The translations under genes were made by a program, and so were the position numbers. A DNA stretch of 64,000 nucleotides from an uncultured Verrucomicrobiae bacterium (GTDB lineage: Bacteria; Chlamydiota; Chlamydiia; Chlamydiales; Rhabdochlamydiaceae), in NCBI GenBank assembly GCA_963718565.1, contig OY970364.1, positions 32,001 through 96,000 of the forward strand, in the 5' to 3' direction. The number at the start of each line of letters is the position of its first letter. Position 1 is the first letter of the stretch. Shown here in pieces: positions 6,406 to 57,437 of the stretch. Below the pieces are notes generated by a model. That model worked only from the letters and a program-made list of their open reading frames with translations. It did no database searches and was not told the origin of the DNA.

Positions 6406-7170
6406 TTAATAACACACACGTTTCAAAATTAAGCCATGCGCAGGGGCGGTGATGCCAGCTAAGGTACGGTCTTTGCTTGCCAAGATCATCGGGATTTGAT
6501 CTGCCTTGATCTTTCCGCATCCCACGTAAGCAAGGGTCCCTGCGATATTACGCGCCATTCTAAATAGAAAATGATCGCCCGTCATACAAATGTTAAGACG
6601 GTTTTCAGAATGAAAGAGAATTTCAGTGTTCTCGATTCGGCAAATCGGATCGCGGTCCCACAGGGAGCGCTCATTGCAAAAGGCCGAAAAATCATAAGTG
6701 CCGATGAGGTATTCTGCGGCTTTTCTCATCTTTTCGATATCTAAAAAATATGGGAAGTGCCAGGAAGTATGACGGAGAAATGGCAGCTGCAAAAATCCAT
6801 GGCAAATCTGATACCTATATTCTTTTTTCACACAAGAAAGCGTGGGATGGAAATCCTCGCGCATCTCTTCAGCGCTGACAACGGCGATTTCTTTAGGGAG
6901 CATTCCGGGGGAATTGCAATTCCCTCTTCCATTTAAACTAGACTGCAAGGACTTTAAACAAAGAACTTTTGAAGTCATGAAATTGACGACTTGTCCTTCG
7001 GCGTGGACTCCCGCATCAGTGCGGCTAGCAGCTTGAAGCTTGATTTCATGTTGAAGGATTTGCCGAAGAGCCTTTTCTAAAGTTTCCTCAATACTCGGCC
7101 CCATTTTGGTTTTTTGCCAACCCACAAAAGAGGCACCGAAATAGGTAATGACGAGTTTAATATTAGACAT
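6406..7170 (-). CDS. truA: tRNA pseudouridine(38-40) synthase TruA carrying an 8-aa in-frame insertion
   Basis: SRTDAGVHA and TAPAHGL; start MSNIKLVI overlaps the marC stop (TAATG). Confidence 0.93.
   Translation of the reverse strand: MSNIKLVITYFGASFVGWQKTKMGPSIEETLEKALRQILQHEIKLQAASRTDAGVHAEGQVVNFMTSKVLCLKSLQSSLNGRGNCNSPGMLPKEIAVVSAEEMREDFHPTLSCVKKEYRYQICHGFLQLPFLRHTSWHFPYFLDIEKMRKAAEYLIGTYDFSAFCNERSLWDRDPICRIENTEILFHSENRLNICMTGDHFLFRMARNIAGTLAYVGCGKIKADQIPMILASKDRTLAGITAPAHGLILKRVCY
6907..6926. mobile_element. Collapsed family A footprint, in frame within truA
   Basis: GGGGGAATTGCAATTCCCTC flanked by TTCC at 6903-6906 and 6927-6930; net +24 bp. Confidence 0.8.
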
Positions 7171-7997
7171 TACTTGGAAACGTAGTTTATACCGAAACAA
7201 CATGAAGAATCGGTTTTTGGCTGCGCTGGACATCCCAGATTTTGATCCCGGCTGCATCTCACAACTTGTTCAGTGTGCCTGCTTCCCTGACAAAAGAGCA
7301 ATCGTGCTCTTTTGTAAGTGTCCGCAGCGCCGCCGCTTCGCTGGTTCAAACTCCGGGCGCCAGCTTTGCCAAAATCTCGATTCTTCATGTTGTTTCGGTA
7401 TACGAACATATCGGTTCCTTCGAGGAACATCTGCACAGCGATCAACGTCAAGATTAGGCCCATCAATCTTTCACAAGCGACAAGGCCGCGCCATCCTAAA
7501 AGTTTCTTCCATAAAGAAGAACTGAGCAAAATCAGTGTCGAGGCTGCCCACGCAATGACGATAGCGCACAGAGGGAGCATTAAATCATTGTTGTGCTGGC
7601 CTGAATAGAGCATGACAGCGGCCAAAACCGCAGGACCAGCAACTAGAGGGGTTGCCAATGGAACGATGAAGGGTTCTTTATCGTGGGGAAGTTCAACGTC
7701 TGGATCTCTTCTACCCGGGAAAATCATTTTTAAAGCGATGAGGAAGAGAATGATTCCTCCTGAGATGAGGATTGTCGGCATTGTGACGTTGAGAAAACCG
7801 AGCAAAGCATCACCGATAAAATAGAACAGGATGATGATGATGAGCGCAATGATGAGTTCGCGGATAATGATTTTGTGATGTCGGCTCGCATCAATGTCTT
7901 TTAGTACCGAAACAAAAATTGGGACGTTTCCGATGGGATCCATCAGCAAAAAAAGCGCAAGCGCCATTGAGAACATATGCATCCACCAGGAGTCCAT
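7170..7997 (-). CDS. marC: MarC family membrane protein with a 71-aa in-frame MITE insertion near the C-terminus
   Basis: MDPIGN.P, PFIVPLATPLVAGP, ERLMGLIL. Confidence 0.9.
   Translation of the reverse strand: MDSWWMHMFSMALALFLLMDPIGNVPIFVSVLKDIDASRHHKIIIRELIIALIIIILFYFIGDALLGFLNVTMPTILISGGIILFLIALKMIFPGRRDPDVELPHDKEPFIVPLATPLVAGPAVLAAVMLYSGQHNNDLMLPLCAIVIAWAASTLILLSSSLWKKLLGWRGLVACERLMGLILTLIAVQMFLEGTDMFVYRNNMKNRDFGKAGARSLNQRSGGAADTYKRARLLFCQGSRHTEQVVRCSRDQNLGCPAQPKTDSSCCFGINYVSK
7190..7400. mobile_element. Palindromic MITE family E, 211 bp, IS630-type with TA target
   Basis: Perfect TIR TACCGAAACAACATGAAGAATCG at both ends; TA at 7188-7189 and 7401-7402; internal 11-bp hairpin at 7290-7315. 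Confidence 0.9.
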
Positions 7998-13822: not shown

Positions 13823-14705
13823 TGAGGCGCTTTTCGCTATGAGAATAGAGTTCTGGATGATATTTTCGTAAGAAGCGAGATAAGCGTTGTGTTTTGTTGA
13901 TGATTTCTTTTTTATAATTGCTGGGATTTTTTACTGTCTCATCGTAATCAAAGGAGCTTAAGTCTAACGTGACGGCTTTCTCATCTATAAACCCAAAGTT
14001 ATTTCTTAAGGAATGGTCGTAATCGCGGAGGCCTTGTTTACAAAGGGTGAGAAGGCAATTGAGAAAATCGTCAATACATTGTTTAGCTTCGTCCATTTTC
14101 TTTTGTTTTGATAGGTATTGCAGATGCGGAAAGAGAAGATCAGCCCTTTTTTGAACCACGAATTCCGTTTTGTCCAAGTCAATGGTATGGTGGATGCCAA
14201 TATTGTCGATCAAGGTCACGGGCTTATGTTTGCCTTGCGTCTTGTTTAAATGGACATAGAGAATTCCTGACCGCTCTTTTGCTTGGGTATAGAGCAGCAT
14301 ACAGCTTTTAAAATTGAATTCTTGAAAATAAGGAACATTTTGAGGCCAAGGGTCGCTCTGGAGAAAGAGTTTTTTAAATGAAAATTTCTTAAAGAAGGAA
14401 GAGAGAAGGAGATGCGAGTGCTTATAGAATTTGAGAACAGTGTGTTGATCTTCTCCCAAAAAGGCAAAGCACCAACCTCCAGATCCTAAAAAAGTAAAGG
14501 ATTGGCCGAGAAGTTTGTCGATATTTTTTTGTTCTTCATCAGTCAGTGGGGGCGCTTCCCAACGCGGTTCATTGGGAAGATTGGATAGGATTAGATAGGG
14601 GCGGAATCCATGCGTTTGCTTTAGACAAAACAAATAGAGACCTGTAAATAAGGTTGACAATATTAAAAAATAAAAAGAGATGCGCACTGTTTTTTTGAGG
14701 ACCAT
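13788..14705 (-). CDS. Membrane-anchored protein with a kinase-like fold, paralog 2
   Basis: FLGSGG..FAF, VLKF, D....NFG, LDLS; similar to the adjacent ORF. Confidence 0.65.
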   Translation of the reverse strand: MVLKKTVRISFYFLILSTLFTGLYLFCLKQTHGFRPYLILSNLPNEPRWEAPPLTDEEQKNIDKLLGQSFTFLGSGGWCFAFLGEDQHTVLKFYKHSHLLLSSFFKKFSFKKLFLQSDPWPQNVPYFQEFNFKSCMLLYTQAKERSGILYVHLNKTQGKHKPVTLIDNIGIHHTIDLDKTEFVVQKRADLLFPHLQYLSKQKKMDEAKQCIDDFLNCLLTLCKQGLRDYDHSLRNNFGFIDEKAVTLDLSSFDYDETVKNPSNYKKEIINKTQRLSRFLRKYHPELYSHSEKRLNEIMEIDALEE

Positions 14706-14706
14706 A

Positions 14707-15826
14707 TACTCTAGAAAATTGAAGTCTGGAGAGGATTGAGTTCAATTGTTTGGAAATTGTCGTTAATTCGCTTTTTCAGCATGTCTTTTAAATTAATAAC
14801 GCCAGTGTTGAAAAAATCTCTAATTTTCTCAGTAAATTCATTGAATTTTGAATACAGTGTATTATAAGTAACACACTCTCTCATAACTTTCCATAAACGC
14901 TCAATAGCATTCAAATTTGGGGAATACGGAGGTAAGTAGTGTATTTGAATTTTGGTTTGGCTATCCAAATATTTTTGCACTTCCTTATTCTTGTTTGATC
15001 TGCCGTTGTCTAAGATTAAGTGGATTTTTTTTGCATCTGTATTAGCCGCTAACGTTTGGAGAAAATCGACCGCACTTGCAGCATCCACAGTGCTATATTC
15101 CTTCGTCACGACTTGCATTGCAGTCAATTCAATGGCACCAATAAAATGCAATCGCTCTTGCTTAGCGGTTGTTCCTAATGTCTTTATTTCGTTTTTTAGG
15201 ATCCACCCAGCCACAGACTGGCTCTGATACTCAGGGTGTACAGCATCTCCAAAGAAAATTTTCTCGCCTTCTTGGAGACCGGCTTTCAATTCATTGTATT
15301 TTTTAAGGAACGCAGCTTGTTTTTCGGGATCGAGCTTTCCTGGTACTTTGATTGGATGTTTATAAACAAATCCATGCCTCTTCAACCAATTTGTCATACC
15401 AGCCACAGTGTATTTCACTTGATATGCGTCTAGAACGTAGAGACAAATTTTGCTCATTTTGAGATACGTTATTTGACTCAAATGTCTCCTCAGCGCATCT
15501 TCTTGGTCTAGGGTTAACTTGGAGGCCTTTCCCAAATGTGGATCATTGATAGTTTTTTGCTTGGCATCGTATTCTCTTTGATAATCATAAACGGACGACT
15601 CGCTAATTCTTAAAATCGCCGCTATTTCCCCTGGACTGTGGCAATCATCCCTACCTAAAATGACGCATACACGGTTCCGTTCGTTGACATCTCTTGTTTT
15701 TTTTACAAGCTGTTCTAAATATAAACGCTGCTCATTGGACAACTTTTGCATAGAAGCATTATCCACTATCGCTGAAATATTTTTTAGGGAAATTTAAAAT
15801 TTTACAGAATCCAATCATGAATAGTA
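14707..15826 (-). mobile_element. IS630 family element, intact copy 1 (1120 bp)
   Basis: Ends TACTATTCATGATTGG and TACTCTAGAAAATTGA flanked by TA; near-identical to the copy at 54849. Confidence 0.93.
14711..15766 (-). CDS. IS630 transposase
   Basis: FGDAVHP, LILDNG, YLPPYSPNLNAIERLW. Confidence 0.93.
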   Translation of the reverse strand: MDNASMQKLSNEQRLYLEQLVKKTRDVNERNRVCVILGRDDCHSPGEIAAILRISESSVYDYQREYDAKQKTINDPHLGKASKLTLDQEDALRRHLSQITYLKMSKICLYVLDAYQVKYTVAGMTNWLKRHGFVYKHPIKVPGKLDPEKQAAFLKKYNELKAGLQEGEKIFFGDAVHPEYQSQSVAGWILKNEIKTLGTTAKQERLHFIGAIELTAMQVVTKEYSTVDAASAVDFLQTLAANTDAKKIHLILDNGRSNKNKEVQKYLDSQTKIQIHYLPPYSPNLNAIERLWKVMRECVTYNTLYSKFNEFTEKIRDFFNTGVINLKDMLKKRINDNFQTIELNPLQTSIF

Positions 15827-15845
15827 TATACTGCAACCATTATTT

Positions 15846-16379
15846 CTAATTGCGTGGGGTTTTGTCTTTGAGGAGATGTGCTTCGGGTAATTCGAGAGTG
15901 AGGAAGCGGCGCTTGCGGTCCTGGCCCATTCCAAGGGAGAGGAACAAGGCTTTGCCTTGAATCTTGAAACCTTTTTCTGGTTCATCGTAAAAAAGAGAAA
16001 ACCAGTCCCGTTTCCAGGCCCGAAATTTGGGCCAACCCATCTGTTTGCCTTTCCGTTTTCCTTTTTTTGATTTTTGATGAACCCGGATTGCTTCACTAAG
16101 TCTCAAAGCGGTATTTTTTAATGGAGAAGAGTGGACGACTTTTAGAAAGGGGTGCTCTTCCTTGAGTTTTGGAAGTTCATTTCTGAGTCCTCTTTCTGTA
16201 TAGAGGGTCTTTGATGCCTCCGGGTTGCCGGAATGGATAAATTCCCGCTTGAGTTCCAGGCTTTTTTCTAGCAGATGATTATAAAGCCAATTACAGATCC
16301 GCGATTGCCCATCGAGCTCAGAAATTGTTTGAGGGTCTGCTTCAATTCTCAGCTTAAGAACCAGATTCTCTTTAGACAT
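15846..16379 (-). pseudogene. tnpB: TnpB, truncated before the RuvC domain
   Basis: CNWLYN..L, VHS..L, GWPKFR; stops at about 177 aa. Confidence 0.8.
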
Positions 16380-16992
16380 TGGCGACCGCATTTTGAAGGT
16401 TGGCCAAAAGCTGTTTGTTCTTATGGCTTCTTGAACCATATAGCCTTGCAGAAAAGACGGTAATGATTTCCAAAACGTCTTTGGCAAGTTCCTCCTCGAA
16501 GGAAGGTTCGTCTCCCTGGTTGGTAATCACCACTTCGACATTTTTGACTGCGCAAAGAGAGAAGACAAGCTCTGCTCCGAATCGCAAAAGGCGGTCTTTA
16601 TGCGTGAGAACCAGGCGGCCAATCTCTCCGTTCATAATTTGCTCAAGCAGTTGTTTTAGCCCACGTTTATTATAGTTCATCCCGGAACCGAGGTCTTTGG
16701 TTACTGAAAACACCCATCCTTTTGCAGAGCAGTAAATTTCTAACATATGGACTTGTCGTTGTAAATCTTCTTTTTGATCATGACTCGAAACTCTTGCGTA
16801 GGCAACAGTTAGACGATCAGAGGTTTTATCTCCGCAATTAAATGGCTGTAACTGAGTGAGACTATAGCGGCGTTGGCCGCCCTGTGTGCGATGACAGGGA
16901 ACGATTTTCTTTTGTCTTTCCCATCGGCGGAGTGTTTGTGGAGACACTCCCAAACATTTTGCTGCTTCCTGAATGCTTAAAAACTTGTTCAT
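16372..16992 (-). CDS. tnpA: IS607 serine recombinase/transposase TnpA
   Basis: MerR-like HTH (LGVSPQTLRRWE), YARVSS, DLGSGMN, HKDRLLRFG, FSARLYG. Confidence 0.93.
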   Translation of the reverse strand: MNKFLSIQEAAKCLGVSPQTLRRWERQKKIVPCHRTQGGQRRYSLTQLQPFNCGDKTSDRLTVAYARVSSHDQKEDLQRQVHMLEIYCSAKGWVFSVTKDLGSGMNYNKRGLKQLLEQIMNGEIGRLVLTHKDRLLRFGAELVFSLCAVKNVEVVITNQGDEPSFEEELAKDVLEIITVFSARLYGSRSHKNKQLLANLQNAVANV

Positions 16993-55089: not shown

Positions 55090-56390
55090 CAGGGCCATTT
55101 AACTAAAATGTTTTGACATTTTCGAACAGAAAAATGTTGCCAAAATTCCCTTTAAGTACCCACCACCGAAAGTTGCTGCGCGCCTTACGGAGGCGAGCCC
55201 CCTTTCTGGATCTACAACTGCAGCCATGTTCATAGCCAAACGTCGAAACAACCCCATGTTCTCCGCACTATTCCCTCTATCCGTCAATGCATAATCCTCT
55301 TCAAAAATCACATCAGCTACCCAATGGCATTTGTTTTCTATGCTCCAGTGCTGTCGGGTCCATTTAGCAAAATCTTTGGCAGATGCTCGACGACTCGAAA
55401 TATATAGCCGTCTAAATACCTCATTGGCAGTAGATCCAAGTTTTTGCCTCGTGGACCTTACTTCGATGAGACAGACTAAGTTTTTCCATTTGCCCGCATT
55501 TGGCAACCAGTCCAGGTCCTCGACGACTCGTACTTCTCGAATGTCGATTCGACCATGGCCTTTATCTACTTCCTGGTGAAACGAATGGGGGACTTCCTCC
55601 CATTCGACTGCGTGAGCTTGATCAAAAAAATTCTCCATTTCAGCGCACAGCGTTGGCTGGTTGTCCTTAACAGCCAGCAGATAATCTGCCTTCGCATCAA
55701 CGATTTGTTCTGCCGATTCGGCTACGGTGAAATGTGCATCTCCTGAAATAATCGCCCCCTCTACATTCACTTGCTCCAAAATGATTGGTAACGTGCTCTT
55801 TTCGACTGTTTTATTTGGGACCTTTTCCACGGCAAGACATAATCGATCCTCCGCTGCGAATAGCTCCACTACGTGTGTGACACCGCCTAGGAAATTTGCG
55901 CCTTTCATCCGTTTACCATCGATCGCCAATAGCTGATCGCGCAATGAAGCAGGAATTTTGCTGAACCATTTTTGCAAGTAGTGCTTGAGCGCACCAGGGG
56001 GTGTTTTCACTAAAAACCACCAGAGCGCTCCATGGGAAGGTGCTGAGAGCTCCTCACCTAGCAGAGAAGAAAACCACTCCTCCTGCAGAGAAACATATTC
56101 AGCGATTTCCTCAATCGTATTGCATCCACAAAAGAATCCGCAGAGAATAACAAGAGTCAAATACCAAACTGGATATAAGACACGTTTTTGATTACGTCGA
56201 TAATCAGGGAAATCTGCAAACTCTCCCTTGACGGTTTCCGCGAATACACGGGCATCAAAATTCTTACTAGCTTCTAGGATTGTGGCGTCGATTGGCTTAC
56301 GGCGTGACATAATAGGTCCTCCAAATTTGAGGAATTTATTATGCCATCTTAGCTGATCTGGTATCAAAAATTTTTAGTTAAATGGCCCTG
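55090..56390 (-). mobile_element. ISAs1 family element (1301 bp)
   Basis: 19-bp TIR CAGGGCCATTTAACTAAAA; 10-bp TSD TCCGTTTATG at 55080-55089 and 56391-56400. Confidence 0.95.
55099..56310 (-). CDS. ISAs1 transposase
   Basis: AIDGK, GDA, K.NQPTL, GHGRI..R, HWSIEN..HW..D..F.ED. Confidence 0.93.
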   Translation of the reverse strand: MSRRKPIDATILEASKNFDARVFAETVKGEFADFPDYRRNQKRVLYPVWYLTLVILCGFFCGCNTIEEIAEYVSLQEEWFSSLLGEELSAPSHGALWWFLVKTPPGALKHYLQKWFSKIPASLRDQLLAIDGKRMKGANFLGGVTHVVELFAAEDRLCLAVEKVPNKTVEKSTLPIILEQVNVEGAIISGDAHFTVAESAEQIVDAKADYLLAVKDNQPTLCAEMENFFDQAHAVEWEEVPHSFHQEVDKGHGRIDIREVRVVEDLDWLPNAGKWKNLVCLIEVRSTRQKLGSTANEVFRRLYISSRRASAKDFAKWTRQHWSIENKCHWVADVIFEEDYALTDRGNSAENMGLFRRLAMNMAAVVDPERGLASVRRAATFGGGYLKGILATFFCSKMSKHFS

Positions 56391-57281
56391 TCCGTTTATG
56401 ATTATCAAAGAGAATACGATGCCAAGCAAAAAACTATCAATGGTCCACATTTGGGAAAGGCCTCCAAGTTAACCCTAGACCAAGAAGATGCGCTGAGGAG
56501 ACATTTGAGTCAAATAACGTATCTCAAAATGAGCAAAATTTGTCTCTACGTTCTAGACGCATATCAAGTGAAATACACTGTGGCTGGTATGACAAATTGG
56601 TTGAAGAGGCATGGATTTGTTTATAAACATCCAATCAAAGTACCAGGAAAGCTCGATCCCGAAAAACAAGCTGCGTTCCTTAAAAAATACAATGAATTGA
56701 AAGCCGGTCTCCAAGAAGGCGAGAAAATTTTCTTTGGAGATGCTGTACACCCTGAGTATCAGAGCCAGTCTGTGGCTGGGTGGATCCTAAAAAACGAAAT
56801 AAAGACATTAGGAACAACCGCTAAGCAAGAGCGATTGCATTTTATTGGTGCCATTGAATTGACTGCAATGCAAGTCGTGACGAAGGAATATAGCACTGTG
56901 GATGCTGCAAGTGCGGTCGATTTTCTCCAAACGTTAGCGGCTAATACAGATGCAAAAAAAATCCACTTAATCTTAGACAACGGCAGATCAAACAAGAATA
57001 AGGAAGTGCAAAAATATTTGGATAGCCAAACCAAAATTCAAATACACTACTTACCTCCGTATTCCCCAAATTTGAATGCTATTGAGCGTTTATGGAAAGT
57101 TATGAGAGAGTGTGTTACTTATAATACACTGTATTCAAAATTCAATGAATTTACTGAGAAAATTAGAGATTTTTTCAACACTGGCGTTATTAATTTAAAA
57201 GACATGCTGAAAAAGCGAATTAACGACAATTTCCAAACAATTGAACTCAATCCTCTCCAGACTTCAATTTTCTAGAGTATA

Positions 57282-57437
57282 TACTATTCATGATTGGATT
57301 CTGTAAAATTTTAAATTTCCCTAAAAAATATTTCAGCGATAGTGGATAATGCTTCTATGCAAGAGTTGTCCAATGAGCAGCGTTTATATTTAGAACAGCT
57401 TGTAAAAAAAACAAGAGATGTCAACGAACGGAACCGT
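57282..57437 (+). mobile_element. IS630 copy 3, a 156-bp left-end fragment joined head-to-tail to copy 2
   Basis: Matches the copy 2 left end (one SNP) and follows a shared TA at 57280-57281. Confidence 0.9.

Follow-up and report, generated by a model that had tools for sequence, protein, structure and literature searches.

TA-duplicating MITEs of the IS630/Tc1-mariner type, such as Stowaway-like elements and the Correia elements of Neisseria, are about 150-210 bp long, carry TIRs of approximately 25 nt, are flanked by a TA duplication and contain no transposase gene. Palindromic repeats lying in frame within protein genes have to our knowledge so far been a curiosity mainly of Rickettsia. 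According to a recent review, the Rickettsia palindromic elements (RPEs) lie in frame in many protein genes that are unrelated to each other, and add a conserved peptide to them; 44 integrations are recorded in genes of R. conorii, and of 12 homologues from other species 11 were in frame (PMC10969869). Coxiella burnetii has two MITEs, QMITE1 and QMITE2, which overlap functional genes at their 3' ends, and in the Dugway strain an in-frame QMITE2 forms a 33-aa C-terminal extension of EnhC (PMC5896051).

The element analyzed here, inserted in the marC gene of an environmental chlamydia, shares with the RPEs that it is a short palindromic repeat of an obligate intracellular bacterium found in frame in unrelated genes, to which it would add a conserved peptide; the likeness meant here is one of pattern. 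It differs from them in belonging to another phylum, in its clear 23-nt TIRs and TA duplication, and in that its family includes subfamilies with lengths other than a multiple of three (non-3n) that stay outside reading frames. With the QMITEs it has in common that it is a MITE of an intracellular bacterium and overlaps the 3' end of a host gene, but the direct repeats around QMITEs vary in sequence and are 2-3 or 7-11 nt long (PMC5896051), the chlamydial MITE is flanked by a fixed TA, and the chlamydial insertions are often N-terminal or internal, whereas those of the QMITEs are described there at 3' ends. Size, TIRs, TA duplication and the lack of a transposase gene are as in the Stowaway and Correia type; a matching autonomous element was not found for the chlamydial MITE (see below).

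The preliminary description of this DNA knew of no such family in Chlamydiota, and this agrees with the literature searched. Searches of the main texts of articles retrieved no chlamydial MITE; the string "chlamyd" does not occur in the 2024 RPE review (PMC10969869), and every "mite" in a Rhabdochlamydia genomics paper is an arthropod. In-frame palindromic repeats as such are already known from Rickettsia; what is described here is a coding MITE superfamily that is widespread in environmental chlamydiae and, as far as searched, previously undescribed, with the marC copy as a clear-cut case. A second, unrelated obligate intracellular lineage with the RPE pattern offers an independent case for studying how proteins put up with mobile inserts or make use of them, and one in which the transposon anatomy (TIRs and TA duplication) is clear.

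The insertion at the marC-truA junction

The features of the locus are collected in Table 1, together with two IS630-family elements of the window, by which we mean the whole 64,000-nt stretch of DNA analyzed. The preliminary description had reported a 211-bp element with perfect 23-bp TIRs and a TA duplication that adds 71 stop-free codons to marC, a MarC of 204 aa upon its removal, an overlap of the marC stop with the truA start and an open frame on the opposite strand, and each of these statements is borne out by the sequence. The inverted-repeat arms (7188-7212 and 7378-7402) are 25 nt long and 100% complementary, each consisting of the TA and the 23-nt TIR. The net gain of marC is 211 + 2 = 213 bp, or 71 codons (Tyr200-Ile270, between Val199 and Asn271), and since the element also contains no stop in the frame and direction in which marC reads it, the marC frame stays open. 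In-silico removal of the element and one TA leaves a protein ending in ...TDMFVNYVSK before the stop. The insert lies five codons before the stop, just past the last conserved helix and entirely downstream of the Pfam MarC domain, which covers aa 6-197 only. The marC TAA (7172-7170) overlaps the truA ATG (7170-7168) as TAATG. Neither the insert nor the antisense ORF matched any Pfam family, and the status of the latter as a gene is without support. An AlphaFold2 model of MarC built with 19 orthologues had a mean pLDDT of 50, with 29-46 over the insert, and is of too low confidence to characterize the tail.

Table 1 Features of the marC-truA locus and IS630-family elements in the window
Feature	Position	Strand	Remarks
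truA (tRNA pseudouridine synthase)	6406..7170	-	PseudoU_synth_1 match (Pfam)
Antisense ORF, 125 aa	7148..7525	+	open through the second stop-free frame of the element (P2)
marC (MarC-family membrane protein)	7170..7997	-	275 aa with insert, 204 aa without
TA target-site duplication, left	7188..7189	.	last two bases of the final codon of the element, ATA (Ile270), minus strand
MITE proper	7190..7400	-	211 bp; in marC orientation read in hydrophilic frame P1 (YRNNMKNRDFGKAG...SSCCFGI)
Left 23-nt TIR	7190..7212	+	from repeat search
Nested small hairpin	7287..7318	.	14-nt arms, 93% complementary; within the ~42-bp (14-codon) central segment
Right 23-nt TIR	7378..7400	-	perfect complement of left TIR
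TA target-site duplication, right	7401..7402	.	last two bases of the original marC codon GTA (Val199)
IS630-family element, intact	14704-15828		
IS630-family element, partial	about 56376-57282		

An alignment of MarC orthologues, which had been suggested as the way to find the empty site, confirmed it. A protein search found marC in 37 of 40 related genomes, and 19 orthologues were aligned, 16 from the same genus and three from sister genera. All 19 stop 2-9 residues past the conserved Phe198 (e.g. ...TDMFMKNCAAK before the stop), and the 71-residue insert is absent from every one of them. The DNA alignment with the closest relative runs to the left TA and resumes past the element, the gap being exactly the element. 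Because the orthologues carry empty sites, the marC element is a true insertion; read against these alignments, it is inserted at the TA inside codon 199 (GTA), which it duplicated. In these relatives truA is also found downstream of marC, with the stop/start overlap in at least two. Some tblastn matches in marC of relatives extended beyond residue 205 and could have represented the element; the loci were examined, the element was absent, and these candidates were rejected.

The repeat family and its in-frame copies in this genome

The genome is a single contig of 2.28 Mb, in which the TIR end (up to 4 mismatches) occurs at 48 places and element-related loci number 62 after merging. Three copies, among them that of marC, form subfamily A (215 bp including both TAs, net 213; 93-94% mutual identity), nine form subfamily B (173 bp, net 171), 12 subfamily C (174 bp, net 172; no open frame), eight subfamily D (174 bp, net 172; a different TIR variant) and three subfamily E (about 291 bp), all lengths but the net ones including both TAs; about 20 other loci are fragments or solo ends. 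Subfamily A differs from subfamily B by an additional 42-bp segment at its center, in which the small nested hairpin lies. Both have one stop-free frame per strand, and in the 211-bp element these two readings, of 71 codons each, are the only long frames. Short, lacking a transposase gene, bounded by TIRs and a TA duplication, with 62 dispersed loci and with empty sites in relatives for the five host genes described below, the marC insert is by its anatomy a MITE.

Some features of individual subfamilies may be added. Copies of subfamily D at positions 445388-445561, 499382-499555, 1038080-1038253, 1156636-1156809, 1415223-1415396 and 1478440-1478613 of the contig (G000:C1) are 99.4-100% identical, several of them fully so, which suggests that the subfamily has transposed recently here. 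In several genomes, long and short forms differ by a module of about 42-45 bp with a nested hairpin, as at L097 and L128 (217 bp vs. 172 bp); the length of this module, 14-15 codons, is again a multiple of three. Five TLC nucleotide-transporter matches were found in the genome, four of them long and near full length, and one such gene is interrupted by a 291-bp element of type E (G000:C1:1638408-1638698) with two codons left before the original stop; this transporter therefore now takes both its C-terminus and its stop from the element.

Five of the 12 copies of subfamilies A and B are in frame in real genes. Besides marC (Pfam MarC), the hosts are ybeY (insert in codon 2, TTA, after the native TTG start; Pfam YbeY), an MFS transporter (after MKQK; MFS_1), a CAAX protease (after residue 76; Rce1-like) and a signal-peptide protein (after MKKF; no Pfam match). 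Relatives have empty sites for all five, the uninterrupted sequences reading, for example, MKQKLSSLL... and ...CHFFLKKDLPKS..., or showing ybeY with a TTG start three bases past the upstream stop. With its insertion in codon 2, the element leaves the native TTG start and the ybeY frame unchanged; the database gene call at this copy (G000:C1:652780-652952; L008) starts instead at an ATG within the TIR of the element. All five hosts read the element in a single shared frame, P1 (YRNNMKNR.FGKAGA...SSCCFGI), which is the more hydrophilic of the stop-free frames (GRAVY -0.92 and -0.98; the other frame scores -0.17 and -0.12). A search of the protein database within a band of lengths found the P1 peptide in four proteins of the same genome only. 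Existing gene calls incorporate the insert in four of the five host proteins, and in practice such inserts both inflate and change the gene calls of metagenome-assembled chlamydial genomes.

The preliminary description had also proposed counting in-frame and out-of-frame intragenic copies from a genome-wide TIR search, and the count came out in favor of a frame bias: every one of the five intragenic copies for which relatives show an empty site keeps the frame and contains no stop. Ten of the 35 full copies have a net length that is a multiple of three (3n). With a stop-free frame flanked by 100 codons or more as the criterion, six of these ten lie in such frames, compared to two of 25 non-3n copies (Fisher p = 0.003, a value that overstates the case because copies are related and events not independent). 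Recognizable genes host five of the six, and the non-3n copies are mostly between genes or in the last few codons of a gene.

The most likely reading of this pattern is a selection filter acting on host genes. Insertions would strike TA sites anywhere, and inside needed genes only those that preserve the frame would survive, so that coding regions would retain copies of the net-3n, stop-free subfamilies, chiefly close to the ends of proteins and in some cases inside them. MarC would gain 71 hydrophilic, basic residues while retaining its last five codons and the stop that overlaps truA, and the insert is probably translated. On an open marC frame, ribosomes may unwind the hairpin of the element and terminate at TAATG, preserving any coupling on which truA depends; ribosomes kept on the mRNA up to this point would presumably help truA expression. 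It is reasonable to infer that the insert is tolerated because the coupling is kept.

It is unlikely that the insertion instead crippled marC, leaving a pseudogene in the making whose open frame is a one-in-three accident and whose loss is buffered by paralogues. Two further MarC-family genes are indeed present (G000:C1:1119428-1119991 and 432784-433356; 45% and 30% identity to marC), and since two of the six possible readings of the element contain no stop, a single open insertion carries no significance and the open frame of marC taken singly could be luck. Against this, marC outside the insert is intact and 92% identical to its closest orthologue, the insert lies past the Pfam domain and so close to the stop, and four other genes of the genome have in-frame copies read in the same frame; the chance of five open frames would be (1/3)^5 = 0.004, and that of the same frame in all five (1/6)^5 = 1.3e-4.

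Another possibility, to which we give little credence, is that the element acts as RNA and not as peptide, its hairpin modulating the stability of the mRNA, its processing by RNase III or the translation of truA, with the in-frame position being incidental. The computed RNA fold of the marC element is a single long hairpin (-109.8 kcal/mol, z = -11.7; 0 of 200 shuffles equalled it) that ends 18 nt upstream of the truA ATG, and for Coxiella QMITE2 it has been proposed that RNase III processes the MITE hairpin at the 3' end of a gene (PMC5896051). However, scans of the marC element showed no promoter-like or terminator-like site, no Rfam family matched it or four other copies, and such a role leaves the in-frame state of intragenic copies across the genome unexplained; it is also compatible with a coding insert under a selection filter, and not exclusive of it.

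Very improbable is an assembly artefact that misplaced a repeat copy into marC: public short contigs span neither junction with 31 or more letters and therefore show neither the filled nor the empty allele, but the TA duplication is precise, exact removal restores an orthologue-like C-terminus, one public contig matches 7257-7407 without differences, and the marC copy, being just 93-94% identical to its two nearest copies, is no collapsed duplicate. Parts of the stretch were found in five DNA runs, from soil and sediment metagenomes, which are the source of these short contigs, and in no RNA run among those listed.

Occurrence and reading frames in other chlamydiae

A search of 60 further genomes from the GTDB family gave matches to the subfamily B element in 28. 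Full elements, defined by a both-ends pattern (up to 2 mismatches), turned up in 34 of 128 further genomes from the family. A phylum-wide sample of 300 others contained 38 positive genomes, from at least eight families, and 30 genomes of one family with genomes of about 1.1 Mb had none. Reversed-pattern controls gave 0-2 matches per genome. Among MAGs titled Chlamydiae, Rhabdochlamydiaceae, Parachlamydiaceae or Anoxychlamydiales, many carry exact ends. They were also seen in MAG contigs titled Pseudobdellovibrionaceae and Bacteroidetes (L064, L258), where misbinning or transfer is possible.

Two samples were used for the analysis of reading frames. The first was drawn from 12 + 30 loci and 51 further regions among the matches listed (202 matches lay outside these) and comprised 87 distinct elements after this genome's own copy and two duplicates had been dropped; the second, from 80 loci out of at least 124 stretches, added 36 new elements. 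TA was present on both sides in 69 of the 87 and 31 of the 36. Long open frames contained 20 of 52 net-3n elements but only 2 of 35 non-3n elements in the first sample, and 9 of 23 vs. 2 of 13 in the second; combined, this gives 29/75 vs. 4/48 (Fisher p = 1.5e-4, likewise overstated, as the counts cover elements among the matches listed, which share subfamily and genome history and come from related genomes). The suggestion of the preliminary description that this is an RPE-like coding repeat is supported by this excess together with the five in-frame insertions of the present genome.

Pfam domains were identified in 11 of the 20 long frames of the first sample and none in the other nine. Four of the 11 hosts have clearly internal insertions, namely an AMP-binding enzyme, UbiE, an ankyrin protein and a RecD-like helicase; in UbiE the insertion falls between profile positions 47 and 48, and the profile picks up at 48 directly past the insert. 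A HigB-like protein has a C-terminal insertion. In the remaining six (OEP, LeuRS, HIT, aldo-keto reductase, GT2 and LicD) the element is N-terminal to the first domain, and here coding and leader positions are indistinguishable, because stop-to-stop frames do not separate them.

It is possible, but in our view doubtful, that the superfamily has been shaped for life in genes, its 3n lengths, stop-free ends and hydrophilic, probably disordered P1 peptide being adaptations by which a TA-targeting MITE could colonize coding sequences across environmental chlamydiae. If this is true, the elements would be a recurring source of new protein tails, leaders and internal linkers and sometimes, as in ybeY, of start-proximal sequence. 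The first sample contains nine distinct length classes that are 3n and 11 that are not, i.e. no 3n excess, and in one other genome (G008) seven of eight copies of a 169-bp 3n subfamily are without any open frame; both observations speak against a simple story of elements designed to code. We consider it probable overall that an RPE-like coding MITE sits in frame in marC, that its family extends across environmental chlamydiae, and that a filter of this kind accounts for the positions of its copies.

Target site and candidate transposases

Duplication of a TA target is an established trait of transposases of the IS630/Tc1-mariner type, and the MITE may be mobilized in trans by such an enzyme. 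The preliminary description had pointed to IS630, and this holds for the target, since 44 of the 48 TIR ends in the genome abut TA. The TA target is the one feature suggesting the link; the resident IS630-family element appears to have different ends. This element is 1125 bp long, encodes a DDE_3 transposase of 351-360 aa, duplicates TA and is present in about 15 copies with 99.5-100% identity. Its ends resemble those of the MITE weakly: 15-16 of 26 positions match at the left end and 9-10 of 26 at the right (null 10.9 +/- 2.6).

None of 30 loci with IS630-like transposases in the family is flanked by MITE ends. Solo MITE ends in the genome have 25-50 nt in common and no transposase, and in 80 further loci pairs of distant ends enclosed ordinary or unknown ORFs and no transposase; two such enclosed ORFs were compared with Pfam and gave no match. 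The mariner transposase profile (PF01359) also gave no match, but its control likewise matched nowhere. The conserved MITE ends provide a handle for tracing the mobilizing transposase.

Next to the intact IS copy of the window lies a repeat of about 590 bp (15848-16439), which occurs at no fewer than nine other sites in the genome with 99.7-99.8% identity. It overlaps a 213-aa ORF (15846-16487) that may be the N-terminal part of a TnpB-type protein.
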